Source: Squalus acanthias
Lineage: Eukaryota
Direction: 5' to 3'
Assembly: GCA_030390025.1 (NCBI GenBank)
Contig: CM059431.1
Location: forward strand, 150,600,001 to 150,664,000
Length of the DNA: 64,000 nucleotides
Numbering within the stretch: the first letter of the stretch is position 1; every line of letters begins with the position of its first letter. This document shows positions 12,225 to 64,000 of the stretch, one piece after another. Both the position numbers and the translations under genes were made by a program. A model generated the notes under the pieces. The model worked only from the letters and a program-made list of their open reading frames with translations. It had not been told where the DNA came from and ran no database searches.

Positions 12225-15200
12225 GAGAATGTGGGCTGCGATGTGTGATCAGAATGTTGGATATGATTTGTAATCACAACGTGGAGTCTGGTTTATGATC
12301 AGAATGTGGGACGTGATTTGGTGTCAGAATGTAGGCTATGATTTGTGATCAGAATGTGGGCTGTGATTTGTGATCAGAATATGGGCTGTGATTTGTGTTT
12401 AATATGTGGTTTCTAATTTGGGATCAGAATGTGGGCTGTGATCTGTGATCAGAATGTGGACTATGATTTGTGACCAGAATTTGGGTTGCTATTTGAGGTC
12501 AGAATGCGAACTGTGGTTTGTGATCAGATGTGGCTATGATTTGTCATCAGAATGTGGACTGTGATTTGTGATCAGAATAGGGACTGTGATTTGTGATCAG
12601 AATGTAGACTGTGATTTGTGATCAGAATATGTCCTGTGTATTTGTGTTCAGAATGTGGACTGTGATTTGTGATCAGAATGTGGAGTGTGATTTTTGATCA
12701 GAATTTGGGTTGCAATTTGTGATCAGAATGTGCACTGTGATCTGTGGTCAAAATGTGGGCTGTGATTTGTGTCCAGAATGTGGGGTGTGATTTTTGATCA
12801 GAATTTGGGTTGCAATTTGTGATCGGAATCTGGACTGTGATCTGTGGTCAAAATGTGAGCTGTGATTTGTGATCAGAATGTGAACTGTCGTCTGTGATCA
12901 GAATGTGGACTGTGATTTGTGATCAGATTGTGGACTGTGATTTGTGAACAGAATAGGTCCTGTCATTTGTGATCAGAATGTGAACTGTTGTTTGTGATCA
13001 GAATGTGGACTGTGATTTGTAATCAGATTGTGGACTGTGATTTGTGCTCAGAATATGTGCTGTGATTTGTAATCAGATTGTGGACTGTGATTTCTGATCA
13101 GAATATGTCCTGTGATTTGTGTTCAGAATTTGGGTTGCGATTTGTGTACAGAATGTGGGCTTTGATTTGTTATCAGATGTGGGCTGTGATATGTAATTAG
13201 AATGTGGACTGCGATTTAAGTTCAGAATGTGGACTGTGATTTTTTTATCAGAATGTGTACGGTGATCTTTGATCAGAATGTGGGCTGCGATTTGAGTTCA
13301 GAATGTGGACTGTGATTTTTTTATTAGAATGTGTACGGTGATCTTTGATCAGAATGTGCACTGTGATTTGTGATCAGAATGTTTGCTGTGATTTGAGTAC
13401 AGAATGTGGTCTGTGATTTGAGTTCAGAATGTGGACTGTGATTTGTGATCAGAATGTGGATTGTGATTTTTGATCAGAATGTGAATTGCGATTTGTGATC
13501 TATATTTGGAGGCTGACTTTTACAGAATGTGGGCGGTGATCTGTGATCACAATGTGGGCTGTGATTTGTGGTCAGAATATTGGCTATGATTTATGATCAG
13601 AATGTAGACTGTCCTTACTAATCAGAATGTGATCTGTGATTTGTGATCAGAATGTAGGATGTGATTTGTAATCTCAATGTGGACTCTGGTTTGTGGTTAG
13701 AATGTCGTCTGGATTTGTGATCAGAATTTGGGCTGTGTTTTGTGATCAGATTTGGGCAGTGATTTGTGATCAGATTTGGGATGTGATTTGTGATCAGATT
13801 TGGGTTGTAATTTGTGTTCAGAATGTGGACTCTGATTTGTGATCAGAATGTGGACTGTGATCTCTAATCAGAATGTGGGCAATGATTTGTGATCAGAATG
13901 TTGGCTACGATTTGTGATCAGAATGTCGACTGTGATCTCTAATCAGAATGTGGGCAATGATTTGTGATCAGAATGTTGGCTACGATTTGTGATCAGAATG
14001 TCGACTGTGATCTCTAATCAGAATGTGGGCGATGATTTATGATCAGAATGTGGACTGTGATTTGAAATCCCAAAGTGGGCTATGATTTGTGATCAGAATG
14101 TGGACTGTGATTTGAAATCCCAAAGTGGGATGTGATTTGTTATCAGAATGTTAACTGAGATTTGTGATCAGAATTGGGCTGTGATTTGTGATCAGAATGT
14201 GAACTGTGATTTGTGATCATAATGTGGACTGTGATTTGTGATCATAATGACTGCTGTGATCTGTGATAAGAACATGGGCAGTGATTTGTGATCTCAATGT
14301 GGACTTTGATTTGTGATCAGATGTGCGCTATGATCTGTGATCGGAATGTGGGCTGTTATTTGTGATCAGAATGTGTGCATTGCAATTTGTGACCAGAATG
14401 TGTGGAATGCGATTTGTGATCAGAATGTTGGCTGTAATTTGTGATCAGAATGGGGTCTGCGTTTTGTGTTCAGAATGTGGGTTTTGTTTTCTGAACAAAA
14501 TGTTAACTGTGATTTGCGATCAGAATGCGGGCAGGATTTCTTGATCAGAATGTTGTCTGCGATTTGTGATCATATTATGGACTGTGATTAGTGATCAGAT
14601 GTTGGCTATGGTTTGTGATCTGAACGTTGACAGTGATTTGTGATCAGAATGCGGGCTGTGATTTGTGATCAGAATGTTGGATGTGATTTGTGGTCAGAAT
14701 GTGGGACGTGATTTGTGGTCAGAATGTTGGCTATGATTTGGGTTCAGAATGTGGACTGTGATTTGTAATCAGAATATTTGATGTGAATTGTGTTCAGAAT
14801 GTGGACTGTGATATTTGATCAGAATGTGGAGTGTGATTTGTGATCAGAATGCCGGCTGTGATTTGTGATCAGAATGATTGATGTGCTTTGTAATCTCAAT
14901 GTATATTCTGATTTGTGGTCAGAATGTGGGACGTGATTTGTGGTCAGAATGTTGGCTATGATTTGGGTTCAGAATGTGGACTGTGATTTGTAATCAGAAT
15001 ATTTGATGTAAATTGTGTTCAGAATGTGGACTGTGATATTTGATCAGAATGTGGAGTGTAATTTGTGATCAGAATGCCGGCTGTGATTTGTGGTCAGAAT
15101 ATTGGCTATGATTTGAGATCTGAATGTGGACTGTGATTATATATTTGTATACGGACTGTGTTTTGTGATCAGAACGTTGACTGTGAATTGTGATCAGAAA

Positions 15201-18031
15201 GTGGACAGTGATTTGTGATCAGAATTTGGGTTCCGATTTGTGATCAGAATGTGGACTGTGATCTGTGGTCAAAATGTGGGCTGTGAATTGTCTCCAGAAT
15301 GTAGGCTGTGATTTTTGAACAGAATGTGAATTGTCGTTTGTGATCAGAACGTGGACTGTGATGTGTGATCAGAATGTGGGCTGTGATGTTTGATCAGAAC
15401 GTGGACAGTGATTTGTGATCAGAATGTGGGCTGTGATTTGTGATCAGAATATGGATTGTGATCAGAAAGAGGACTATGATTTGTGATAAGAATTTGGCTT
15501 GTGATTTGTGATCAGAATGTGGACTGTGATTTGTGATCAGAATGTGGAATGTGATCAGAAAGTGGACTATGAATTGTGATAAGAATTTGGGTTGTGATTT
15601 GCAATCAGAATGTGGACTGTGATTTATGATCAGAATATGTGCTGTAATTTGTGTTCAGAATGTGGACTGTGATTTCTGATCAGAATGTGAACTGTGATCT
15701 GTGATCAGAATGTGAACTATGATTTGTGATCAGATGTGGGCTATGGTTTGTGATCAGAATGTGGACTGTGATTTTTGATCAGAATGTTGGATGTGTTTTA
15801 TAATCTCAATGTATAGTCTGATTTGGGGTCAGAATGTTGGCTATGATTGGAGATCAGAATGTGGACTGTGATTTGTGATCAGATTTGTGCTATAGTTTGT
15901 GATCAGAATGTGGACTGTGATATATGATCAGAATGTGGACTATGAGTTGTGATCAGATGTGGGCTATGATTTATGATCTGAAAGTCGACTGTGGTTAGTT
16001 ATCAGATTGTGATCAGTGATTTGTGATCAAAATGTGGGATGAGATTTGTAATCTCAATTTAGACTCCGGTTTGTTGTTAGAATATGAGCTGTTATTTATG
16101 ATCAGAAAGTGGGCTGTCATTTGTGATCAGGATGTGGACTGCGATTTGTGATCAGAATGTGAGCTGTGATTTGTGATCAGAATGTTGACACTGATTTATG
16201 ATTAGAATTTTGGATATGATTTGTGATCAGAACGTAGATTGTCATTCGCGATGAAAATGTGGGGTCTAATATGTGATCAGATTATATGCTTTGATTTGTG
16301 ATCAGAATGTGGGATATGATTTGTGATCAGAACGTAGATTGTCATTCGCGATGAAAATGTGGGCTCTGATATATGATCAGCTTATATGCTTTGATTTGTG
16401 ATTAGAATGTGTACAGTGATTGGGATCAGAATGTAGAATCATATTTCTGGTCAGAGTGTGGGCTCTAAATAGTGATGAGAATATGGGCTATGATTTGTGA
16501 TTAGAATGTTTGCTGTGATTTGTGATCAGAATGTTGATTGTGGTATGTGATCATAATGTGGAGTTGATTTGTGATCAGAATGCGGGCTGTGATTTTTGAT
16601 CAGAATTTTGGATGTGATTTGTAATCTCAGTGTAGTCTGATTTGTGGTCCGAATTTGGGATGTCATTTGAGGTCAGAATGTTGGCTATGATTTGAGATCA
16701 GAATGTAGACTGTGATTTGTGTTTAGTATGTGAACTGTAATTTGAGATCAGAATGTGGGCTGTGATTTGCGATCAGGATGTGCACTGTGACTTGTGATCA
16801 GAATGTGGACTGTGATTTGTTATCAGAATATGTGCTGTGATTTGTGTTCAGAATGTGTGCTGTGATTTGTGTTCAGAATGTGGACTGTGATTTGTGTTCA
16901 GAACGTGTGCTGTGATTTGTGTTCAGAATGTGGACTGTGATCTGTGGTCAAGATGTGGGCTAAGGTTTGTGTCCAGTTTGTGGGCTGTGATTTGTGATCA
17001 GAATGTGAACTGTCGTTTGTGATCAGAGTGTGGACTGTAATTTGTGTTCAGAATGCGGATTGTGATTTGTAATGAGAAAGTGGACTATGATTTGTGATCA
17101 GAATTTGGGATGCGATTTGTGATCAGAATGTGGACTGTGATCTGTGATAAAAATGTTGGCTGTGATTTGAGTCCAGAATGTGGGCTGTGATTTGTGATCA
17201 GAATTTGGATTTAGATTTGTCATCTGAATGTGGACTCTGATTTTTTATCAGAATGTGGACTATGATCTGTGATCACAATGCGGGCTGTTATTTGTGATCA
17301 CAATGTGGGTTATGATTTTTGATTAGAATGTGGACTGTGGTTAGTAATCTGAATGCGATCTGTGATTTGTGATCACAATATGTGCTGTGATTTGTGATCA
17401 GAATGTGCTCTGTGATTTGTGATCACAATATGTGCTGTGATCTATGATTAAAACGTGGGCTGTGATTTATGACCAGAATGTGGACTGTCCTTGGTGATCA
17501 GATTGTTAACTGTGATTTGTGATCCGAATGTTGACATTGATATGTGATTACAATTTTGGATGTGATTTGCGATCAGAATGTGGGATATGATTTGTGATCA
17601 GAACGTAGATTGTGATTCGCGATGAAAATGTGAGCTCTGATATGTGATCAGATTATATGCTTTGATTTGTGATTAGAATGTGTACAGTGATTGGGATCAG
17701 AATGTAGAATCTTATTTCTGGTCAGGGTGCGGGCTCTTATAAGTGATGAGAATATGGGCTATGATTTGTGTTCAGAATGTTTGCTGTGATTTGTTATCAG
17801 AATGAGGGCAATGATTGTGATCAGAATGTGAACTGTGATCTTTGTTCAGAATGTAAACTTTTATCTGTGATCAGAATGTGGGCTGTGATTTGTGATCAGA
17901 ATTTGGGTTAAGATTTGAGATCTGAATGTGGGCTGTGATCTGTGATCAAATGTGGACTGTGATTTGTGATCAGAATTTGGACTGTGATTGGCGATTAGAA
18001 TATTTACTCTGACTTGTGTTCAGAATGTGGG
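12225..18031 (+). repeat. Satellite array, 25-bp unit tgtgatt-tgtgatcagaa-tgtggac, about 230 diverged copies
   Basis: Continuous tandem array of about 5.8 kb. A few further degenerate units at 18570-18622 lie beyond a CR1 insertion. Confidence 0.97.
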
Positions 18032-18571: not shown

Positions 18572-19125
18572 GATCTCTAATTTGATATCAGATATATGGG
18601 GGCTGTTTTGTGATCATAATGCTTTTTTTGATTGCAGTATGAGCACTCACTTGTGTCAAGGATTCAGTTAGTACTTCATTTTTTCTCGACAGTTTATCCC
18701 ATCTTTTCCATTACGAATCAACATGCTCGGCTATAGATTGATTCGCTGCAATTTTCATGTACTGTATCTTCGTGTTTATGGTGCAAAGTAATATTGCAAA
18801 CATTTTAATTAGTGCTACTGTAAATCTGTGAACATCCATGGAGTCAGTGATTATATGAAAATATATTAGTTCATATTTAAGAATCAGACCGCTGACTATT
18901 TTTAATTCCTACTTTTGATTCACATCAGTTTAGGGGGCAATATGGAACAGTACAATCATTACACAAACGTGCATTTAGTGGAAATATAATTACAACAGAG
19001 CACTGAGATTGGATGAATGTACAGATTTACATAAAACATTTACATATATTACAGTTAGTTTACAGAAACGGTTATCAATACTTTTATTGTCCCTGCGGAT
19101 ACTGTACTTGCAGTTTGTACCAAAG

Positions 19126-19213
19126 TCACACCCACACTTCCAGTCCAGCTCTGGATACTTGCAATGACCTCAGTTGTTTTTTTCCAAATACGGTGAAGTT
19201 GTTGCCAACCAAC
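19126..19213 (-). CDS. NLR-like gene, last coding exon (LRR/C-terminus)
   Basis: Acceptor gctctttcag; (R)LVGNNFTVFGKKQLRSLQVSRAGLEVWV-stop. Minus-strand AATAAA at 19083-19088. Confidence 0.85.
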
Positions 19214-19461: not shown

Positions 19462-19629
19462 CTGATCCACTTCAGTCCTGAGCAGGTTTTTATGAGGCGC
19501 GTGAAGGTGGCAATGGATTTATCCCTGAAACAATTTCTGTCCAAGTCCAACCCCATCAAGGACCAATTTGCACCGACAGAAGAGGCAAGGTCTTCTGCGC
19601 ATGCGTCTGTGAGGCCATTGTAATCCAAT
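19462..19629 (-). CDS. NLR-like gene, LRR exon (168 nt)
   Basis: tatag acceptor and gtgagt donor, phase 2-2; LDYNGLTDACAEDLASSVGANWSLMGLDLDRNCFRDKSIATFTRLIKTCSGLKWI. Confidence 0.9.
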
Positions 19630-19791: not shown

Positions 19792-19962
19792 CTCAATATT
19801 GTGATTTTGCAGTCGGGATCCCTCAGTGCGGCACACAGTCGTTTGGCTCCAGAATCGCCCAGACTGTTGTGGCTCAAGACCAATACTTCGAGTGTCCGGT
19901 TTATACTTAGAGCAGAGGCGAGGTGTTCAGCGCAAACATCGGTAAGTTGGTTATCCCACAAC
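19792..19962 (-). CDS. NLR-like gene, LRR exon (171 nt, GC donor)
   Basis: tgcag acceptor; LWDNQLTDVCAEHLASALSINRTLEVLVLSHNSLGDSGAKRLCAALRDPDCKITIL. The canonical 171-nt RI-type LRR exon length places the donor at AG|gcagga. Confidence 0.88.
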
Positions 19963-20774: not shown

Positions 20775-20861
20775 TCCAGCGTCTGTATTTTGCAGTCCGG
20801 TCTACTCAATGCAGCGAAAAATCCTTCAGATGCCGAATCGCTCAATTTGTTCTCGTTTAGC
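20775..20861 (-). CDS. NLR-like gene, single-LRR exon (87 nt)
   Basis: tctttctag acceptor and gtaagg donor, phase 2-2; LNENKLSDSASEGFFAALSRPDCKIQTL. Confidence 0.88.
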
Positions 20862-22256: not shown

Positions 22257-23328
22257 CTCAGAACTTTACACTTATGCAGCACAGCTGTTAAGAGACGCAA
22301 TCCTCCATCTTCAATATAACACCTGTTGAGATTGAGCTCCAGAACCGTGCCGCATAATTCTAAACCCACCGCGACCGCAGCACAATCCATGGGGCTCAAT
22401 TTTAGAGGGCTCCATCCTCCGAATGCAAGTCGGTTTACAGAGCCGACCGCGATCCGGGCTGGTTCTTCATTCTGATATTCATACAGGTGGTATAAAGTGT
22501 TCAGGAGGTCTGTTTTGCTCTGTTCACTGTTCATATTTTGAAGATCTAATTTGACCCGCGATTCGAGGAACCAAATTAATCGGCGAGTGGTCTCGCCCGG
22601 AAACGGACCCGAGAATTCCTCAAGCAAATGAGCTGAAATCGGTGAGCAAAGACCGAACAGAAAGCGTAGAAATGTCACGGACTGGCGTTCTGCCTTCCTG
22701 TAATGTTTTTCTAGGACTCTGATGAGATCTTCGGGGTCTGTGGTCAGAAACTGTCCAACCGCGGCTATGAAATGTTGAACTGGCGGATGGAGGAATTTGT
22801 GTGTAACTCGGGCAGCAGAATCATCCTGCTCCAGGATTTCCGCCAGAAACGAGGACCGCAATTCTGATTTCCGGAATTTCTGGCGACAGACGCAGTCATC
22901 GAACACGGAGCTCTCATTACAGATTCCCTCGTAGGCCAGTTCACCCATTTTCAGCAGTAACTGACGTGGGTCTTTGATTTGCCCGGAATGAGTTTTTAAC
23001 GCGTTGCCAAGGTAATTTGAAAGCAGGTGGGTGATGGTCACCGGAAGTTTTGCCACACGTCCAGGTTGGTGCGTAAAGAATGGTGCCAAAGATGCGCAGA
23101 CGATTGCGCAGTTGGAGGGATTTGCACACAGGCTGTACAAGATAGCATTCTGCTCCACGTGCCGAAACGCTTCGGCCGCATTTTTTTCATTTCCAAAATA
23201 ATTGCTGAAATATTCTTTTTTCTCCAGGCCAGAAAGTCCCTCTATTCTGTTGTCATTCTCAAAAGTGGAATGAATTTCCGGGCGCTCATTCTGAAAGCGA
23301 GGCGGTTTTTTATGCCGCTGTTCCAAGT
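22257..23328 (-). CDS. NLR-like gene, large exon: HD1, winged helix, HD2 and first LRR, with no P-loop NBD
   Basis: Acceptor ttttacatttag and donor AG|gtatgg. Motifs IEGLSGLEKKEYF, LCANPSNCAIVC, FLHPPVQHFIAA, FLRFLFGL, LLNTLYHLYEYQN, LSPMDCAAV, LNLNRCYIEDGGL. No Walker A or B. Confidence 0.92.
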
Positions 23329-23529
23329 CTAAATGTAAAACTTAAAAGAAAACGTTTAGATCATTGTTGTAATCGTTTCTCTCTCCCTGCATTAATTTTT
23401 AGCTTTGATTTTACATCTTTGAGAAGTTTAATAAGTAACATTGTAGAAATTGGAATATAAAATGAATATTGAACAATATCTAAATGAGCGCCTCACCAGA
23501 CGCTTAAAATTAAAAAAACAAATTATTCG

Positions 23530-24130
23530 TTTTTTTATGGGATGTGGGCGTCGCTGGCCCATCCCTAATTGCCATTGAGAAGGTGGTGGTGGGCCGCCTT
23601 CTTGAGCCGCTGCAGTCTGTGTGGTGAAGGTACTCCCACAATGCTGTTAGGGAGGGAGTTCCAGGATTTTGACCCAGCGACGATGAAGGATCTGCGATAT
23701 ACTTCTAAGTCAGGATGGTGTGTGATTTGGAGGTGAACTTGGAGGTGGTGGTGTTCCCATGCGCCTGCTGCCCTTGTCCTTCTAGGTGGAAGAGGTCGCG
23801 GGTTTGGGAGGTGCTGCCGAAGAAGCCTTGGCGAGTTGCTGCAGTGCATCTTGTAGCTGGTACACACTGCAGCCACGGTACGCTGGTGGTGGAGGGAGTG
23901 AATGGTTAATGTGGTGGATGGGGTGCCAATTAAGCGGGCTGCTTTGTCCTGGATGGTGTCGAGCTTCTTGAGTGCTGTTGGAGTTGCACTCATCAAGACA
24001 AGTGGAGAGTGTTCCATCACACTCCTTACTTGTGCCTTGTAGATGTTGGAAAGGTTTTGGGGAGTCAGGAGGTGAGATACTCGCCTCAGAATACCTTAGC
24101 TCTGACCTGCTCTTGTTGCCACAGTATTTA
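23530..24130 (-). mobile_element. Non-CR1 LINE 3' fragment (clade not assigned)
   Basis: MEHSPL...LKKLDTIQDKAARLI...SLHHQRTVAAV...WNSLP. Tail ggcaattagggatggg...gccagcgacgcccacatccc is shared with the SINE at 30260. Confidence 0.8.
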
Positions 24131-24334
24131 TGCCTCTATTGCAATTTCTGCTGATTTTTATATGATGTTTGCAATCTTTCTTTCAGCCTACAGAATTGAA
24201 TCGACTTAGATGCTATAATTTCTCTCGTTTGTTAATTTTACAGACACTTTTAAAATTCTTACATTGGAACAGTTTTCTTTTTAAACATTGCGAATTGGGT
24301 AACTGTTACGCTATTGCTGGGAAATCCTACTTAC

Positions 24335-24400
24335 CCTTTAGATGATCCGGTTCTTCACCGGCCAGAGTAATCTGGACTGATGGCAATGGGTGGTTGGCAT
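24335..24400 (-). CDS. NLR-like gene, 66-nt linker exon
   Basis: tttcctttag acceptor and G|gtaagt donor, phase 1-1, open frame (D)ANHPLPSVQITLAGEEPDHLK. Joins the flanking exons in frame. Confidence 0.7.
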
Positions 24401-25484: not shown

Positions 25485-25800
25485 AGGGTGGCGGGGGTCT
25501 GGAACTCACTGCCTGATAGGGTGGCGGGGGTCTGGAACTCACTGCCTGAAAGGGTGGCGGGGGTCTGGAACTCACTGCCTGATAGGGTGGCGGGGGTCTG
25601 GAACTCACTGCATGAAAGGGTGGCGGGGGTCTGGAACTCACTGCCTGATAGGGTGGCGGGGGTGTGGAACTCACTGCCTGAAAGGGTGGCGGGGGTCTGG
25701 AACTCACTGCCTGATAGGGTGGCGGGGGTCTGGAAGTCACTGCCTGAAAGGTTGGCGGGGGTCTGGAACTCACTGCCTGAAAGGGTGGCGGGGGTCTGGG
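25485..25800 (+). repeat. 33-bp minisatellite (agggtggcgggggtctggaactcactgcctga[t/a]), about 9.6 copies
   Basis: Near-perfect units; one frame reads RVAGVWNSLP(D/E). Confidence 0.97.
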
Positions 25801-27053: not shown

Positions 27054-27444
27054 CTGTGTTTCTCTTTACTTCCGGAGTTGGCTTGGTTTGATCCTGATCG
27101 GCATCCTCAGCTCTGGAGCACTTCAAACTTAATACATCCGGGCTATCTGCTGAGGCTGCCCCTGGGATCAACGTTGCTCCGAGATGATGAGAGATTGCAT
27201 CGTTTGATGGAGCAGCTCCAGGATTTGTGAGTGAGAACAGGCCCGTGACGGATTCCACTGCTACAAGTGTCTGGTTTTCTTTTAAGGTCATATGCTGATA
27301 TTTGCAACATATGTAATTTAACACTGTTCTTAAGCAACTGCAGTTTCCATCACTTCTGGTGACAGCTTGCTCCGGTTGTCTATTGCTGACTTCAGCGGTG
27401 TAGATTGTAGAGTCCATGTTTTTGGCTGTTTCCATACTCGTCAT
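27054..27444 (-). CDS. NLR-like gene, putative first coding exon (no death-fold domain recognised)
   Basis: ATG at 27444 with an upstream in-frame TAG; phase-1 donor ACAG|gtacat matches the next exon. Strong acceptor tgtttttttctcttaccag near 27742. Confidence 0.6.
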
Positions 27445-27784
27445 CGTTTTGCACCCTACTGACCTTTGATTTGATGTCTATTCGCCGTTCCTTGTTAAGA
27501 TGGAATTGATGCGGCTGGAAGCACAGTCTGGATATTGTTTGATCTTATCATTCCTCCCTCTCCCTGTGGATTCAGTCCATCACATGAGGGGATCACTGCG
27601 TTCCCATTACAAAATTAAGCTGTGCCTCATGATACCACCTTCAAAACCTCAGAATTGAATGTTTAATTGTCCTGTTCATAGGTAAATCATTTTCTCTTCC
27701 TGCAGGAGCTGTAGGCGAATGTTTCGAATCAAGTTAATTTCCTGGTAAGAGAAAAAAACAAGGATATACAGTCTTCCAAACATT

Positions 27785-28265: not shown

Positions 28266-28471
28266 TTTTGTATTCTTATTTCCCCGGCTCATTATGGAAT
28301 AATTTCAGAAAAAGTTCCGATCAGCATAATTTGAGAGAAGTCAATCCCTGACAATAACCAAATAACTTTTTGCTGTGGTAGATTCAAAATAATAACAAAA
28401 ACAACAATAATAAAATCATTAATATTATTTATTATCAGCATTTTTGTTTAACGTTATCAGGTTGCATACGT

Positions 28472-29871
28472 AGAGAGAAAGTGGGGAATTACAGACCGGT
28501 AAGCCTGACATTGGTAGTGGGGAAAATGCTAGAGTCCATTATAAAGATTGTAATAGCTGAGCTCTTGAAAAACAGTGACAGGATCGGACAAAGTCAACAT
28601 GGATATACGAAAGGTAAATCGTGCTTTACTAATCTACTGGAATTTTTTGAGGATGTACCAGGGAAAATAGATAAGGGAGAACCAGTAGATGTGGTGTATT
28701 TGGACTTTCAAAAGGCTTTCGATAAGGTCACGCATAAGAGATTAGCGTGTAAAGTTAAGGCACATGGGATTAGGGGCAAGGTATTGACTTGGATAGAGAA
28801 CTGGTTGGCGGACAGAAAGCAAAGAGTAGGAATTAATGGCTCTTTTTCCGAGTGGCAAGCAGGGATCGGTCCATGGACCCCAGTTATTCACAATATACAT
28901 TAATGATCTAGATCAGGGAACTAAATGTAATATATCCAAGTTTGCAGATGACACAAAGCTGGGTGGCAGTGTGTGTTGCGAGGAGGATACCGAGAAACTC
29001 CAGGATGATTTGGACAGGTTGGGTGAGTGGGTAGAAGCGTGGCAGATGCAATATAACGTGGATAAATGCGAGGTTATCCACTTTGGTGTCAAAAACAGAA
29101 AGGCACACTATTATCTGAATGGCAATAGATTGGGAGAAGGGAAAGTGCAACGAGACCTGGGTGTCCTTGTGCACCAGTCGCTGAAGGTAAGCATGCAGGT
29201 GCAGCAGGCGGTGAAGAAGGCATTGGTATGTTGGCCTTCATAGCGAAAGGGTTTGAGTATAGGAACAGGGATGTCCTGCTGCAGTTGTACAGGGGCTTTT
29301 TGAGACCACACCTTGAGTACTGTGTGCAGTTTTGGTCGCCTTATCTGAGGATGGATGTTCTTGCCATGGAAGGAGTTCAGCGAAGATTCACAAGGCTCAT
29401 ACCTGGGATGGCAGTAATGACATATGAGGAGAGATTGCGTCGATTGGGCTTATACTCGCTGGAGTATAGAAGAATGAGAGGGGATCTCATCGAAACATAT
29501 AAAATTCTGACAATTCTGGACAGACTGGATGCAGGAAGAATGTTCCCGATGGTCGGAGCGTCCAGAAACAGGGGTCATAATCTAAGGATAAGGGATAAGC
29601 CATTTAGGACAGAAATGAGGAAGAATTTCTTCACCCAGAGAGTGGTGAACCTGTGGAATTCTCTACCACAGAAGGTAGTTGAGGCCAAGTCATTAAATAT
29701 ATTCAAGAATGAGTTAGATATATTTCTTAAATCTAAAGGTATCAAGGGATATGGGGAGAAGACAGGTACAGGGTACTGAGTTTGGCTGATCAGCCATGAT
29801 CTCATCGAATGGCGGAGCAGGCTCGAGGGGCCGAATGGCCTACTTCTGCTCCTATCTTCTATGTTTCTATA
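28472..29871 (+). mobile_element. CR1 LINE, RT through 3' UTR
   Basis: NYRPVSLT, YLDFQKAFDKV, KFADDTKLGG and a (tatgtttc) tail. Same subfamily as 4571-5568. Confidence 0.93.
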
Positions 29872-53274: not shown

Positions 53275-54600
53275 ATTTGCGGTTTTCCTGTCCAGGGAGT
53301 TTTGGTAGATTACAACCAACGCATCCACTATCTCTGCAGCCACTTCTTTTAAGACCCTAGGATGCAGGCCATCAGGTCCAGGGTACTTGTCAACCTTTAG
53401 TCCCATTGGTTTGCCCAGTACATTTTCTCTAGTGATAGTGATTCTTTTAAGTTACTCTCTCCCTATAGCCCCTTGATTATTAATTATTATTGGGATGCTT
53501 TTAGGCTCTTCTACTGTGAAGACCGATACAGAATATTTCTTCAAAGTCTCTGCCATTTCCAAGTTTCCCATTATTAATTATCCAGTCTCATCCTCTGCGG
53601 GGCCAACGTTTACTTTAGCTACTCTCTTCCTTTTTAATACCTGTCGAAGCGCTTAATGACTGGTTTTATATGTTTTGCTTGATTACACTAATAATCTATC
53701 TTCTCGCTCTTTGTTTTTTCTTTGTCATCCTTTGTTGCTTTCTAAAAATTTCCCAATCCTCTGGCCTACCACTAATCTTCGCAACATTGTATGCCTTTTC
53801 TTTCAATTTGATACCATTCTTAACTTCCTTAGTTAGCCACGGATGGTTCATCCTACTCGTAGAATCTGTCTTTCTCACTGGAATAAACATTTGCTGAGAG
53901 CTATGAAATATTTTGTTAAATGTCTGCCACTGATTATCTACCATCTTACCCTTTAATCTATTTTCCCCAGTATAATTTAGCCAACTCTGTCTTCAAATCA
54001 TTTTAATTGGCTTTATTTCAGTTTAGGACACTAGTTTCAGACCCAAGTTTCTCACCCTCAAACTGAGTTTTAAATTCTATCATACTATGATCACTCTTCC
54101 CTAGAGGATCCTTTACTATTAGATCATTAATTAATCCTGTCTCATTTCGCATTACCCGATGTAAAATATTCTGCTCCCTGGTTGGTTCCACAACGTATTG
54201 TTCTAAAAAACCATCCCGAATACATTCTATGAACTCGTCCTCAAGGCTACACTTGCCAATTTGATTTGTCCAATCTACATGAAGATTAAAATCGCCCAGG
54301 ATTATTGCAGTACCTTTCTTACGAGTCGCAATTATTTCTTGATTTATACTCTGTCCTACTGTTAGGGGGCCTATAGACAACTCCAACCACTGACTTATTT
54401 CCCTTACTATTGCTTATCTCCACCCAAAATGATTCTACATCTTGATCTTCTGAGCCAATATCATTTCTCACCACTGCACTGATCTCAGGTGTGGTCTAAC
54501 CAGAGGTTTGTACAGCTGCAGCATAACTTCTACCCCCTTGTACTCTAGTCCTCTAGATATAAAGGCCAGCATCCCATTAGCCTTTTTTGATTATTTACTG
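53275..54600 (-). mobile_element. CR1 endonuclease/linker fragment plus short RT fragment
   Basis: IILGDFNLHVDW...YVVEPTRE...LGKSDHSMIEF; PWLTKEVK. Confidence 0.88.
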
Positions 54601-55945: not shown

Positions 55946-58740
55946 CATAGAATCATAGAATCATAGAAAGTTACAGCACGGAAGGAGTCCATTTCGGCCC
56001 ATCGTGTCCGTGCCGGCCAACCAAAAGCTATCCAGCCTAATCCCACTTCCCAGCTCTTGGTCCGTAGCCCTGCAGGTTACAGCATGCCAAGTGCACATTC
56101 AAGTACTTTTTAAATGTGGTTAGGGTTCCTGCCTCTACCATCACTTCAGGCAGTGAGTTCCGGGCCCCCACAACCATATGGGTAAATAAATTTCCCCTCA
56201 AATTTCCTCTAAAGCTTCCACCAATTACTTTCAATCTGTGCCCCCTGGTTTTTGACCCCTCTGCTAAGGGAATTAGGTGCTTTCTATCCACTTTATCCAG
56301 GCCCCACATAATTATAAACACCTCAATATGGTCTCCTCTCAGCCTCCTCCGTTCCATGGAAAACAGACTCAGCCTATCCAGTCCATTTTGGACAGATCCT
56401 GCCTTATCATATTAACATCGGCCTTCCCCCTATTTAGAACCTTTATTTCCGGTCCATCTTTGTCCTTTTCCATGACTACCATAAATCTCACCGAATTATG
56501 GTCAATGTCACCAAAATGCTCTCCTACTGACACATCTACCACTTGCCTGGCTACATTCCCTAGAATTAGGTCCAGTACCGCAACCTCTCTTGTAGGACTT
56601 TCTACATGCTGGCTCAAAAAGCTTTCCTTGATGCACTTTAAGAATTCCGCACCCTCTAAGCCGTTCACACTCTGACTATCCCAGTTAATTTTGGGAAAGT
56701 TGAAATCCCCTGCTATTATCACCCTATTATTTCTACAATTCTCTGAGATTTGACTGCATATCTGTTCCTCTATCTCCCCCTGACTGTTTGGGGGCCTATA
56801 GTACACTCCCAGCAAAGTGCTTGGCCCCTTTTTGTTTTTACGTTCTACCCATATGGCCTCATTAGAGGAACCTTCTTAGTTATCAGCCCTCCTTACAGCA
56901 GTAATTGACTCCTTGATTAATATTGCAACAACACTCCTATTTTTCACCCCGCTCTGTCTCGCCTGAAGATTCTATACCCCGGAATATTGAGTTGCTAGTC
57001 ATGCCCCTCATTCAACAATGTCTCCCTGATAGCAACAATATTAACTGCCATGTGTTCATCAACACCTTCAATTCATCTGCCTTACTCGCAAGACTTCTTG
57101 CATTAAAATAAATGCCATCCAGCCTTGCCATACTGCCTTATGCCGTTACATATATGCTCTGCCTTCCAGGCTGACTTGCTTTTTCCTCTATATTTGGCTG
57201 TGCATCACCCCCTTCTATAGCTCCACTCCGTATCCCATCCCCCTCCCTTGTAAGTTTAACACCCCCCCCCCCCCGCTCACTCGAATCAGTACTAGCAAAC
57301 CTCGCCGCAAGGATGTTGTTCCCGTTCCGGTTCAGGTGCAACCCGTCCGACTTGTACAGGACCCACCTTCCCCAGAAGCATACCCAGTGATCCAGGAAAC
57401 TAAAGCCCTCCTTCTTGCACCAACTCTTTAGCCACGCATTCATCTGCTCTATCCTTCTATTCCTATACTCACTAGAAGGTGGCACCGGGATTAATCCAGA
57501 GATTACAATCTTTGAGGTCCTGTTTTTTAATCTGCTATCTAGCTCCCTAAATTATTGTTGCAGGACCTCATCCCTCTTTCTACCCATGTCGTTGGTACCA
57601 ATGTGAACCACGACCTCTGACTGTTCGCCCTCCCCGTTCAGAATGCCCTGCAGCCGTTCAGTGACATCCTTGATCCTGGCACCAGGGAGGCAAAATACTA
57701 TCCTGGAGTCACGTCCGCGGCCACAGTAACGTCTATCTCTTCCCCTTGCGATAGAATCCACTATCACTATTGCTCTCCCACACTTTTTCCTCCTCTCTGA
57801 GCCAGTCGTAGTGCCATGGATTTGGCTCTTGCTGCATTCCCCTGGGAAACCATCTCCCCCAGCAGTAGGCAAAACGGAAAATCTGTTGGAGAGGGAGATG
57901 GACCCAGGGGACTCCTGCACTACCTTCCTAGTTCTTTTACTCTGTCTGGCGGTCACCCATTTCCTGTCTGCATGTGCACTCTTTACCTGCGGTGTGACCA
58001 CCTCGTTAAACGTGCTATCCACGAAGATCTCAGCTTCGCGGATGCTCCACAGTGACTCCAGCCGCAGCTCCAGCTCCGAAACGCAGATTTCGAGTAGCTT
58101 CAGCTGGAGAAACTTCCTCCACATGTGTTCGCCGTGGACACCTAAAGTGGCCCTGACTTCCCACATAGCACAGGAGGATCACTCCACGCAGCCGAGCTGC
58201 CCTGCCATGTCCTACCCTTAATTTACACCATATACTTCCTTTAAATTAAAGAATATTGAATACACTAGGGACCTTACTTCCCTTTAAACACTACTTACTC
58301 TAAACTACACACCTTACTTTGACTTTAAGGACTGGACTGTAGCAATACTCACCAGGTCCTACTTACCAATCAGCTCCTTCACTGGTTGTGACGTCACTTT
58401 AGCGGTTTCGCAGTTGTTGCTGTTTGACTGCTCCCGCTCTCAGACTCGTTCCTTGATGTACAGTAAGAACCAATTCCTACAGGGTCAAAAGTTAGGAAAA
58501 ATAAAGGCGAAGCAAGGAAGCTCCTCCTTCCGCTCCTCATCTAACTCCCTGACTCACCCAACTCGCAGCACTCTGTTTAAACCGCACTCATTCTCTGCGC
58601 TCGGTCTCCACCCAGGGCCGCTCTCGCTGCCTCTGCTGCCGGTGAGTCTGAGCCGCTCTCTCTCTCTCCCCGCTCTTTAAATCCTCGGTCTCTGCGCTCG
58701 GTCTCCACCCAGGGCCGCTCTCGCTGCTGCCGCCGGTGAG
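55946..58740 (-). mobile_element. CR1 copy B: 5' UTR, ORF1 (coiled coil and SGNH esterase), endonuclease, large internal deletion, 3' end
   Basis: ORF1 from ATG 58208 has ELELRLESL, VVVHIGTND, DGLHLN. EN has GVYYRPP, AGDFNFP, LDLILGN, DHN. Jumps at about 56385 to the ERRRLRGD...WD 3' end with an (attctatg)n tail. Confidence 0.9.
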
Positions 58741-61700
58741 ACACTCCAAGGTTCCTTTGTTCCTCTACACTACTCAGTGTCCTACCATTTAATCTGTATT
58801 CCCTTTCCTTGTTAGCCCTCCCCAAATGCATTACCTCACAGTTCTCCGGATTGAATTCCATTTGCCACTGTTCTGCCAACCTGAACAATTTATTGATATT
58901 TTCCTGCAGTCTACAGCTTCCTTCTTCAGTATCAACCACCCAGCCGATTGTAGTATCAACTGCAAACCTCTTAATCATACCCCCTATATTCAAGTCTAGA
59001 TCATTTATATATACCACAAAAAGCAAGTGACCTAATTCTGAGCCCTGCGGAACACCGTTGGAAACAGCCTTCCAGTTACAAAAACACCCATCAACCATTA
59101 CCCTCTGCTTCTTGTCTCCGAGCCAGTTTTGAATCCAACGTGACAATTTGCCCTGCATCACATTGGCTTTTAACTTCGTGACCAGTCTGCCATGTGGAAC
59201 CATATCAAAAGCCTTGCTAAAGTCCATATACACGACATCAAACGCACTAACCTCATCTACCCTCCTTGTTACATCCTCAAAAAAATCAATCAAATTTGTC
59301 AGATACGACCTTCCCTTCACAAATCCGTGCTGACTCTCCTTGATTAATCCGTGTCTTTCTAAATGAAGATTTATCCTGTTCTTCAGTATTCTTTCCAATA
59401 ATTTTCCCACCACCGAGGAAACGCTGACTGGTTTGTAATTACTCGGTCTATGCTTTTCTCCCTTTTTAAACAAGGGTACCACATTAGCAGACCTCCAGTC
59501 ATCCAGCACCACACCTAAAGCCAGAGAGGATCGGAAAATGGTGGTCAGGGCATCTGTTATTTCCTCTTTTGCTTCGCTTAACAGCCTGGGATACATTTCA
59601 TCCGGGCCTGGGGATTTATCGACTTTTAAAGCTGCTAAACCCCTCAATACTTCCTCTCTCACTATGTTTATTTCATTTAATATTTCACACTCCTCGTCCC
59701 TGATAGCAATGTCTGCTTCGCCACTCTCCTTTGTAAAGTAGACGCAAAGTATTCATTAAGAACCCTGCCGACGTCTCCCGCCTCCACACACAGATTACCC
59801 TCATGATCTCTAATAGGCCCTACTCTTTCTTTAGTTATCCTCTTATTCTTAATATATTTATGAAACATCTTTGGGTTATCCTGAATTTTACTGGTCAAGA
59901 ATTTTTCATGCTCTCTCTTTGCTTTCCAAATATCCTTTTTAATTGCACCTCTGCACTTTCTGTACTCCTCTAAAGATTCTGCAGTACTTAGCTCTCGGTA
60001 TCTGTCATATGCTTCCCTTTTTTTCATAATCCTACCCTGTATGTCCCTAGACATCCAGGGGGCTCTAGATTTGTTAGTCCCACCTTTTTTCTTTAAGGGC
60101 ACATATTTGGTCTGAACACTCCAGATCTCCTATTTGAATGCCTCCCAATGCTCTGACACTTATTTACCTTCAAATAGATATTTCCAGCCCACTATGGCTA
60201 AATCCTCTCTGAGCTTAGCAAAATTTGCTTTTCCCCAATTTGGAATATTTATTCCTGGTCTATACTTGTCCTTTTCCATAATTACCTTAAATCTAACTGA
60301 ATTATGGTCACTAGCATCAAAATGCTCCCCCACTGATACGCCTTCTACCTGCCCAGCTTCATTCCCTAAAACTAATTCCAGCACCAACCCCTCCCTTGTT
60401 GGGCTTGCTACATACTGGCTAAAAAATTCTCCTGGATGTATTTTAGTAATTCCGCTATACCCTTCACACTAATTTTATCCCAGTTAATATTGGGGTAGTT
60501 GAAATCCCCTACTATTACTACCCTATAGTTATTGCACTTCTCGGAAATTTGTCTTCATATTTGTTCTTCTATCTCCCTCTCACTGTTTGGGGGTCTATAG
60601 TACAGTCCCATCAGTGTGATCGCCCATTTATTTGTTTTTCAATTCGACCTATATGGCCTCGTTTGATGAGCCCTCCAAAATATCATTCCTCCTCACAGCT
60701 GTAATAGTTTATTTAAACAATACCGCGACCCCACCCCCCTCCCATTTTACCTCCCACTCCATCCCGTCTGAAAATCCTGTAACCAAGAATGTTGAGCTGC
60801 CATACCTGCCCGTCTTTCAGCCACGTCTTTGTAATAGCTATAATATCATAGTCCCAAATATCTACCTGTGCCCTCAGCTCATCTGCCTTGTTCGCTATAC
60901 TCCTTGCATTGTAGTATATACCATTTAGTACAGGCAAACCTCCTTGTTGAATACTTCTCGCCCTTGATTCCTCTGTCCTTCCAATTTACTTTCTACGTTT
61001 TTGTTTTCGAATTCCAGTTTTTCTTCCCTCCCTACTGACTCTATTCTTAGGTTCCCATACCCCTGCCAAACTAGTTTAAACCCTCCCCGACAGCACTAGC
61101 AACCGCACCCGCGAGGATATTGATCCCAGCTCTGTTGAGGTGCAACCCATCCGGCTTGTACAGGTCCCACCTCCCTCAGAAACGGTCCCAATAACCAGGA
61201 ATCTAAAACCCTCCCTTCTGCACCATCCTTCCAACCACGCATTCATCTGCTTTATCCTTCTATTTCTGGACTCACTAGCACGTGGCACCGGGAGTAATAC
61301 GGAGATTACTACTTTTGAGGTCCTGTTTTTTAATCTGACTCCTAGCTCCCTAAACTCTGCCTGCAGGATCTCTTGCCTCTTTGCACCTATGCACCAGGGA
61401 GGCAACATACCATCCTGGAGTCACGTCTGCGGCCGGGGAAACGCCTGTCTTCTCCCCTCACTTTGAATCCCCTACCACTATTGCTCTTTCACAATTTTTC
61501 CTCCCCCCCTGTGCAGCGGAGACACCCGTGGTGCCGAGGACTTGGATCTGACTGCACTCATCAGAGCGACCATCGCCACCACCAGTATTCAGAATAGAAT
61601 ACCTGTTGGAGAGCGAGATGCCCTCCGGGGCCTCCTGCACTTCCTGCCTGAACTTCTTCTGTCTGGTGGTCACCCACTTGCTCTCTGTCCACTTTCTCTT

Positions 61701-62440
61701 AGGCTGCGGTGTAACCACCTCACTAAACGTGTTATCCACGTATTTCTCAGCCTCGCGGATGCACCACAATGACTTCAGTCGCCACTCAAGCTCCGTAAAC
61801 CGTCGCTCGAGTCGTTGCAGCTGGTGACACTTACTGCACATGTAGTCATCCATGCAACGCGAATCGTCCATGACTTTCCACATGACACATCCGGTAGACT
61901 GAGCTGCCCTGCCATTCCTGTCATCCCTTTACCTAACAGACTATTTAAAAGACTGAGTACTAACCTTTATGTAAAAGACTAGGAACTACCCTTTATTTAA
62001 AGACTAAGAAATAACTTAACAGAATAGGCTTTAAACTTAAATAAAAACTATCATCCACTACTCTCCAATCAGCTGCTTCCCTTGTGCCGACGTCACTTTT
62101 AATCTGTGACGTCACTTTCGAATGTTGCCTGTTGGGGGCCGCTCTCGCTGCTGCCGCTGCCGGTGAGACTGGGCTCGCTCTCCCTCCCGCCCCTCATACA
62201 CCCCGCTGTCGCTCAGGCTCCTCCCAGAGCCGCTCTCGCTGCTGCCGCTGCCGGTGAGTCTGGGCTCGCTCTCTCTCCCGCTCCTTATACACCCCGCTGT
62301 CGCTCAGGCTCCTCCCAGAGCCGCTCTCGCTTCTGCCGCTGCCGATGAGTCTGGGCCTCGCTCTCCCACCCGCTCCGAAGACACCCCGCTGTCGCTCAGG
62401 CTCCTCCCAGGGCCGCTCTCGCTGCTGCCGCTGCCGCTAT
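58741..62440 (-). mobile_element. CR1 copy A: 5' monomer repeats, ORF1, endonuclease and RT, 3'-truncated
   Basis: ORF1 YMCSKCHQL...IVVGDS. ORF2 YYNARSIANK...KSPGPDEMYPRLL...YMDFSKAFD...GVPQGS...EEQRNLGV, where it ends. Confidence 0.92.
62135..62440 (-). repeat. ~91-bp GC-rich tandem monomers at the CR1 5' end (about 3.3 copies)
   Basis: gccgctctcgct recurs at 62138, 62229, 62320 and 62412. Confidence 0.9.
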
Positions 62441-63050: not shown

Positions 63051-63356
63051 TTAATTGTATCGTATCTTTTGATAAGTCATTTGTAATTAAATAATTTTTC
63101 CATTGTAGATATTTTCGTTTTGGTGAAAGGGCTAACCGATTGGAATTGTTTTCGGTGACAAGGCATCTAAGCTGTGGTTCACCACATCCTCGCTGTTAGC
63201 TGTCCAACAAAGTCCCAGACGACATTGATTTGAAGACAAAGTTCAGAGTTGCTGAAGAAGAGAACCGGAACGTGGGTTACACAAGCAAAGAAGGACACAA
63301 CCTAGCTCCGGCTGAACACAGAATACTGAAAGTATAAAAGACTGAACGAAAACAAA

Positions 63357-64000
63357 ATGAGGAACGTCATACACTTGCGTGTCCCGAAAAGGAAAATATT
63401 GCTTCTCATTGTTGTGTTTGTAGTTTGTTATTTTGTATCACTGCACATGGACGGACAGGCGGATATGTTCCCCACAACTTTGCAAAAATCTTCACGGAAA
63501 CCGAGACAGACGTGCAGAGAGATGCTTCATGATGTTCTTGATATCACCGAAAAAGATTCAAATTGCTTTGAAATAATCAGTAGCAACGAGGAAACCTTTC
63601 GAAGTTTGACCAATTTAACTGGAATCGGAAACAAAGACCCGCACTTAACGGAAATCGATTATGTAAATGTTTGCACAGATTGCGCTTCTTTCATCAAATC
63701 CCACAAATACATAACTTTCCCCATAACCAGCGAGGAACGCGATTTCCCCATTGCCTATATCATTCTGATCCATCATAAAATTCAGATGTTTGAGAGACTT
63801 TTAAGGACCATTTATGCGCCGCAGAATGTGTACTGTGTCCACGTGGACAGGAAGTCTCCACAACCATTTCATTCGGCAGTCGCAGCCGTCGTCTCCTGTT
63901 TTGATAATGTCTTTATCACCAGTAGATTGGAAAGCGTGGTATACGGATCATTTTCCAGGCTCCAGGCCGATATCAACTGCATGAGCGATCTGGTAAGAAG
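63357..64000 (+). CDS. GT14 beta-1,6-N-acetylglucosaminyltransferase (core 2/I-branching, GCNT family), 5' part, runs off window
   Basis: Open from ATG 63357: MRNVIHLRVPKRKILLLIVVFVVCYFVSL (type II anchor)...EERDFPIAYIILIHHKIQMFERLLRTIYAPQNVYCVHVDRKS...SCFDNVF...VVYGSFSRLQADINCMSDL. Candidate acceptor ttttccattgtag ends at 63108. Confidence 0.95.
   Translation, partial: MRNVIHLRVPKRKILLLIVVFVVCYFVSLHMDGQADMFPTTLQKSSRKPRQTCREMLHDVLDITEKDSNCFEIISSNEETFRSLTNLTGIGNKDPHLTEIDYVNVCTDCASFIKSHKYITFPITSEERDFPIAYIILIHHKIQMFERLLRTIYAPQNVYCVHVDRKSPQPFHSAVAAVVSCFDNVFITSRLESVVYGSFSRLQADINCMSDLVR

Follow-up and report, generated by a model that had tools for sequence, protein, structure and literature searches.

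We analysed a window of 64,000 nucleotides from the 3.7-Gb genome of Squalus acanthias (C7:150600001-150664000), the minus strand of which carries a gene related to the NLRs. The initial annotation had proposed seven exons that splice to an uninterrupted reading frame, and this model could be rebuilt from the splice sites and the frame: the exons sum to 391 + 66 + 1072 + 87 + 171 + 168 + 88 = 2043 nt and encode a 680-aa open reading frame (ORF) with a single terminal stop, beyond which lies a hexamer resembling a poly(A) signal. Splice sites are AG/GT throughout with one exception, a GC donor after exon 5; the large third exon (23328..22257), for example, is preceded by an AG acceptor and followed by a GT donor. 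The elements of the gene, in the order in which they are read, are listed here.

27054..27444, minus strand: exon 1, 391 nt, with the ATG start; a clade-private N-terminal region, domain-free by Pfam
24335..24400, minus strand: exon 2, 66 nt, with AG and GT bounds and the frame kept
22257..23328, minus strand: exon 3, 1072 nt, a large NLR exon without the nucleotide-binding domain (NBD); a 28-codon head, then HD1, WHD, HD2 and the first LRR
23245..23328, minus strand: the retained ancestral head and the deletion junction; NLR homology restarts at 23245
20775..20861, minus strand: exon 4, 87 nt, one LRR
19792..19962, minus strand: exon 5, 171 nt, two LRRs, with the GC donor
19462..19629, minus strand: exon 6, 168 nt, two LRRs
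19126..19213, minus strand: exon 7, 88 nt, the C-terminal cap and the stop
19083..19088, minus strand: a poly(A)-signal-like hexamer (AATAAA/ATTAAA), 38 nt past the stop, identified by pattern match only

The N-terminal part of the gene is distinctive. Exon 1 is open in all three genomic copies of the gene (described below) and has no further match in the genome (of 24 candidates, these 3 matched). It matches no Pfam family at E <= 1, and its best Atlas score of 0.78 falls under the lead level of 0.9. Neither exon 1 nor the first 200 residues of the orthologous proteins contain an NLRP-type pyrin or other death-fold effector domain detectable by Pfam at E <= 1, and the N-terminus is predicted to be disordered. 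The translation of exon 2 resembles, in a comparison made by eye, the residues that immediately precede the large exon of the Scyliorhinus orthologue. The sole well-conserved piece of the N-terminal exon among the orthologues P0001, P0153, P0155 and P0157 is a hydrophobic stretch with adjacent cysteines at 27300-27330 (minus strand), which reads L-x-x-(L/I)-C-C-x-x-(R/Q) and is followed by L-K-E-N-Q..V-A-V-E; the S. canicula version of the cysteine motif is C-L-C-W. We would guess at lipid modification or membrane anchoring for this stretch.

None of the public runs recorded for the 9-kb stretch of the gene is labelled as RNA. One sequencing run, which we guess to be RNA, contains a 208-letter contig that matches 19465-19629 exactly and stops at the exon-6 boundary. 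Its 43 further letters were not placed on the adjacent intron. Another contig of the same run lies over 27437-27615, and exon 3 has no cover in it; these contigs count neither for nor against expression, and contig depths cannot rank the parts of the gene.

The introns and surroundings of the gene hold several repeats. A 33-nt tandem repeat (25485-25799; 9.5 copies, 94% matches) lies inside intron 1, and all three copies of the locus have it. LINE-type fragments occur at 23565-24135 (minus strand), 28382-29779 (plus strand), 54018-54413 (minus strand) and 56369-62000 (minus strand), with a match to RVT_1 (E 1.6e-24) and a weak endonuclease match (E 1e-4) that stays under Pfam's cut-off. One of these fragments, ~240 nt upstream of the large exon in intron 2, shows an enormous contig depth in every run compared.

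The missing NACHT block and the retained fold

The frame of exon 3 begins with D-L-E-Q-R-H-K-K, continues for 20 further residues and then reads I-E-G-L-S-G-L-E-K-K-E-Y-F at codon 28. The large exons of full-length paralogues open E-D-V-Q-Q-K-H-K-E; exon 3 shares this head and resumes at their (A)EILGF..EYF motif. When exon 3 is aligned with the large exons of four full-length paralogues from the same genome, all that stands between D-V-Q-Q-K-H-K-E and (A)EILGF is absent from it, and the columns of Walker A, of the FDGLDE-type Walker B and of TSRP are empty. The 28-residue head itself aligns, in local alignment and without gaps, to the very start of the paralogues' large exon, with a score that was equalled by 12, 0 and 3 of 500 shuffles for three paralogues. 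The heads of the other species' proteins were individually non-significant in the same test (their scores were reached by 18 to 461 of 500 shuffles). Since the whole head corresponds to the start of the paralogous exon, what is missing from exon 3 is, as judged from these alignments, one block of about 220-240 residues that comprises the pre-NACHT segment and the whole NACHT NBD. A multiple alignment made with MAFFT had scattered the head over the NBD columns, as if several small remnants of the NBD were left, and this reading was ruled out by the local alignment with shuffles.

Domain searches agree with the alignment. No NACHT domain (PF05729) was detected by Pfam at E <= 1 in the 356-residue translation of exon 3; a full-length paralogous exon, used as a control in the same kind of scan, gave NACHT at E 2.7e-35. 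Two other families, NOD2_WH (residues 123-169, E 1.8e-5) and NLRC4_HD2 (residues 180-288, E 1.7e-11), are both present in the exon. When the pre-ILGF halves of seven paralogues were searched by tblastn for a NACHT exon elsewhere in the 64 kb, the best match reached only E 0.66, which argues that no such exon has been overlooked. NACHT-coding exons number in the hundreds across the genome (of 481 candidates, the best 95 were scored, and all of these lie above Pfam's cut-off). Among the 114 scored genomic matches to exon 3 (from 552 candidates), 111 start at query residue 27-33; residues 1-356 are covered by only three, which are the gene's three copies. Likewise, all 32 PDB hits to exon 3 found by phmmer begin at residue 27 or later. 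Thus, the central claims of the initial annotation, that the entire NBD was removed in frame and that the large exon opens with a family head of the D-x-Q-x-KHK type, are borne out by alignment, Pfam and tblastn, and its estimate of more than 200 residues is narrowed to the single block given above.

The remainder of the gene retains the expected NLR modules. Residues 28-292 of exon 3 align to residues 370-647 of NLRP3 (phmmer, E 5e-19), the best PDB match and the closest solved structure; we take the region of NLRP3 residue 370 to be the NBD/HD1 boundary. Exon 5 matches LRR_6 in Pfam (E 5.1e-6), exons 4-7 are collinear with the LRRs of the orthologues, and about six LRRs are kept in all. The histidine of the F-x-H motif in the WHD (H185), presumably the ADP-contacting residue of NLR structures, is invariant in all orthologues. 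Of the features that mark an NLR, the gene has HD1-WHD-HD2, RI-type LRRs and descent by phylogenetic nesting, and lacks the NACHT NBD.

We modelled exon 3 with AlphaFold2 from an alignment of 61 rows (the two intact copies, six orthologues, and 53 full-length NLRs picked from 150 listed representatives). The model has a mean pLDDT of 86.6 and a pTM of 0.86, values that owe much to the full-length relatives in the alignment and speak for compatibility with the fold, not for stability without the NBD. Residues 28-356 are predicted to fold as the helical domains and the first LRRs, and residues 1-27 (pLDDT below 50) to be disordered. The best PDB matches of the model in Foldseek are NLRP3, NLRP7, NOD2 and oocyte NLRPs (TMq 0.59-0.69, probability 1.00). 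For the whale-shark orthologue, a 5-row alignment gave a poor fold (mean pLDDT 49.2) in which the LRR part is confident.

Genomic copies, orthologues and phylogeny

The same NBD-less structure occurs in three genomic copies, namely the window, C7:150.795 Mb and C7:152.63 Mb. The exon 3 protein of the second copy is 98% identical to that of the window and that of the third 93% identical (with one TGA), and the whole loci, including introns and transposons, are identical at 98.8% and ~95%, respectively. Because they align end to end through introns and transposons, the copies are segmental duplicates. In the third copy (exon 3 at C7:152632517-152633584), the TGA stands at codon 198 and the first ATG is gone; its intron 2 is ~1.8 kb longer than in the other two copies.

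NACHT-less orthologues are annotated in Rhincodon typus, Chiloscyllium plagiosum, C. punctatum, Scyliorhinus torazame, S. canicula and Mustelus asterias. These proteins of 523-713 aa are automatic gene models with automatic names ("NLRP3-like", "NLRP1-like"), and in none of the six was NACHT detected by Pfam at E <= 1. The deletion is also annotated, with the junction, the private N-terminal exons and the C-terminal exon all unchanged in plan, in six other shark species, relatives in which the initial annotation had suggested that it be sought. The whale-shark orthologue P0001 (713 aa) was found by a word-index search; it is 53% identical over 97% of exon 3, and its precomputed domains do not include NACHT. 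It is collinear with all exons of the window: exon 1 matches the whale-shark N-terminus at E 4.9e-15 (tblastn), and exon 7 is 63% identical to the last 30 residues. When P0001 was used in an exhaustive HMMER search, two more NACHT-less clusters came out at 714 and 607 bits, far ahead of ordinary NLRs, which score at most 422; the remaining orthologues were added by profile search. The orthologues have in common a junction region with an S-T-F-E-N-D-type motif, followed by the ..E-Y-F helix, and four of the six also share the motif of the N-terminal exon. The N-terminal exons are absent from all others of the 156 proteins compared and stand beside no other NLR exon of the genome.

To place these sequences, we built a tree of 32 hand-picked rows (8 NBD-less, 7 full-length paralogues of the same genome, 15 of the 150 listed representatives, and the two full-length NLRs P0002 and P0159) by a quick method, with support given by SH-aLRT only. 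The 8 NBD-less rows form one clade (SH-aLRT 100) that has a stem of 0.84 changes per site and is nested among full-length NLRs; within it, the pair from the window's genome is sister (support 94) to a clade of carpet sharks and ground sharks. As there is a single clade, the NBD would have been lost once, before these lineages split. The loss is thus, on the evidence of the tree, ancient and common to several shark orders, and not private to this gene; we assume, from divergence dates, an age on the order of 200 million years. No ray or chimaera orthologue was found in the protein library searches, which is weak evidence of absence.

Identity among the orthologues ranges from 41 to 64% between genera, with the window protein 52-59% identical to those of other genera. 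Within one genus, the proteins P0155 and P0157 of the two Scyliorhinus species are only 78% identical, a divergence that is very rapid for sharks of one genus and suggests diversifying selection, relaxed constraint or a comparison of non-orthologous copies.

Maintenance of the gene and alternative readings

Open frames of ~520-710 codons in seven species whose proteins are so divergent point to selection against disabling changes. Judged from these frames, the gene is maintained over the long term, an argument that assumes the public gene models to be honest translations; the frame of the window itself was verified. The initial annotation had likewise taken the gene to be maintained rather than debris, and the recurrence of the same NACHT-less architecture in six other sharks, in one clade, upholds this. 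Conservation of individual positions was also compared. Among 53 full-length NLRs, 31 columns are at least 90% conserved, and 25 of these are kept in the window protein, compared with 158 of 344 columns overall; the six family-conserved positions that it has lost were counted against maintenance. The orthologues keep 17-20 of 29-30 such columns, versus 115-135 of 344 overall. The very fast evolution of the protein might also reflect relaxed constraint.

Selection among the recent copies is weak. Nei-Gojobori dN/dS values for the three comparisons are 0.75, 0.67 and 0.80 and are indistinguishable from 1 (12 of 39 changes are synonymous; binomial p 0.17). Values not significantly under 1 would be expected if the gene were dying in this species, that is, if the three copies were neutral recent duplicates of a locus whose function is, or was, confined to other sharks. 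The loss of the first ATG and the stop at codon 198 in the third copy fit such decay, and copies as young as these could have stayed open over that time without selection. However, the full 680-aa ORF is intact in both the window and the second copy, and none of the three copies has lost any of the 13 splice sites. Moreover, exons 2-7 have diverged among the copies by 0.42%, 2.6% and 2.9%, versus 1.0%, 4.5% and 4.6% for non-exon sequence (Fisher p 0.019, 0.0004 and 0.002; similar without CpG sites, with p ranging from 0.0004 to 0.03), a rate of 0.55-0.6 times that of non-exon sequence, and 6 of the 13 exonic differences listed for an ~8%-divergent run are synonymous, although this sample is small and incomplete. 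We therefore regard a dying gene as unlikely, the most serious of the alternatives nonetheless. Exon 1 diverges among the copies at the non-exon (neutral) rate. Among the copies, the slower divergence of exons 2-7 favours a maintained gene; the dN/dS ratios of 0.67-0.80, the check that the initial annotation had proposed, do not.

A second alternative accepts that the gene is functional and makes it a non-immune scaffold that would employ the helical and LRR surfaces of NLRs with no nucleotide cycle, as oocyte NLRPs do. Oocyte NLRPs sit in the subcortical maternal complex and in cytoplasmic lattices, and the Foldseek matches include NLRP5, NLRP2, NLRP7, NLRP4f and NLRP14 in oocyte complexes (TMq 0.58-0.68); an N-terminus without a death-fold effector domain would suit such a role as well. 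These matches are, however, no better than those to NLRP3 or NOD2, and the gene is nested in an expanded, presumably immune, family of shark NLRs and evolves fast, which is typical of immune genes. We find this alternative improbable, more so than a dying gene.

An assembly or annotation artefact, in which the NBD was dropped by the assembler or sits in an overlooked exon, has a negligible chance of being correct, given the same junction in three copies, the NBD-less architecture in six other species, the failure of tblastn to find any NACHT-like stretch in the 64 kb, and the contigs of two other public sequencing runs near 23230-23260, which bridge the exon start at 23328 in one case with 0 differences (contig 23252-23477) and in the other, with 14 differences (contig 23214-23381), together with the junction at 23245.

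Possible function and comparison with known systems

NLRs are defined by their ATPase switch, and truncated forms are usually dismissed as pseudogenes or missed domain hits. Here, a form without exactly the NBD keeps its ORF, splice structure and core fold residues across several shark orders. The gene is probably a working ATPase-free NLR derivative that is intact here and in at least six other sharks, and not debris. Our preferred reading, which we consider likely, is that the gene descends from the expanded NLRP-related NLR family, is old and conserved in sharks, exists in this genome in three recent segmental copies (the window's among them), lacks the NBD and acts as an ATP-independent binding module.

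In an ancestor of several shark orders, one in-frame deletion took the pre-NACHT segment and the whole NACHT NBD from the large exon. Left over are an unstructured head of 28 residues, joined directly to HD1-WHD-HD2 and about six LRRs, and, ahead of it, two N-terminal exons specific to the clade. Because it has no NBD, the protein is predicted neither to bind nor to hydrolyse ATP, nor to enter the NBD-mediated oligomerisation that switches NLRs on. Full NLRs use their helical-domain and LRR surfaces to bind ligands, partners and adjacent protomers; as only these binding surfaces are retained, binding without signalling is to be expected. The module could thus bind a ligand or a full-length relative through its helical-domain and LRR surfaces, and may as a result serve as a decoy, an oligomer cap or a negative regulator of the large shark NLR repertoire, a regulatory role that we infer by analogy with the systems discussed below.

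A more ambitious version, which we put forward tentatively and rate somewhat below even, is that the gene encodes a conserved sensor-only HD1-WHD-HD2-LRR NLR that has been without a nucleotide switch since the ancestor of carpet and ground sharks or longer, and that tunes or caps the hugely expanded NLR repertoire or serves as an independent, ATP-free receptor itself. If true, no conserved clade of NACHT-less NLRs would have been described in a vertebrate before, and plant NRG1C would have a counterpart in animals. In either version, the gene would offer a natural test of what helical and LRR modules can do by themselves, and would be a candidate regulator of one of the largest vertebrate NLR expansions. 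It also shows that not every shark entry annotated as "NLRP3-like" or "NLRP1-like" is an NLR in the strict sense.

Among known relatives, the full-length shark NLR paralogues resemble the gene in having a large exon followed by short LRR exons and in the head motif of the large exon, and they are 43-45% identical to exon 3 over HD1-WHD-HD2. The gene differs from them in the absence of the pre-NACHT segment and NACHT NBD, in its about six LRRs, in its private N-terminal exons and in the stem of 0.84 that separates its clade. Outside animals, Arabidopsis NRG1C is a truncated helper NLR that antagonises its full-length neighbours. Both it and the shark gene are natural truncations without a working nucleotide switch that are kept beside full-length relatives, with a regulatory role that is proposed for the shark gene and demonstrated for NRG1C. 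NRG1C, however, belongs to the plant NB-ARC lineage and is of independent origin. Its truncation has taken the N-terminal signalling domain and a part of the NB-ARC; that of the shark gene is a clean loss of the NBD. POPs and COPs, the PYD-only and CARD-only proteins of primates, derive from inflammasome genes, consist of a single module and act as decoys. They have retained the effector domain without the sensor; in the shark gene, which has no death-fold domain, it is the sensor and regulatory module that is left.

A published whale-shark sequence is NLRP-like and has no detectable NACHT, in an account that treats missing NACHT hits as possible false negatives; this sequence may be the orthologue P0001. 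The passages that concern it describe no in-frame deletion, conserved clade or function. Apart from that remark, we found no description of a conserved NACHT-less NLR clade in the full-text literature (subscription journals were outside the scope of this search).

Two further features flank the gene in the window. A 4-kb satellite at 14005-18031, which starts ~1.1 kb past the last exon, consists of 25-nt units (162 copies, 72% matches), and its translation shows a repeated H-S-P-H-S-D-H-K-S-Q pattern. At the opposite end, an open frame at 63330-63998 (plus strand) runs off the end of the window and codes for the beginning of a Core-2/I-branching glycosyltransferase (Pfam Branch, E 9.5e-22), an unrelated neighbour gene.
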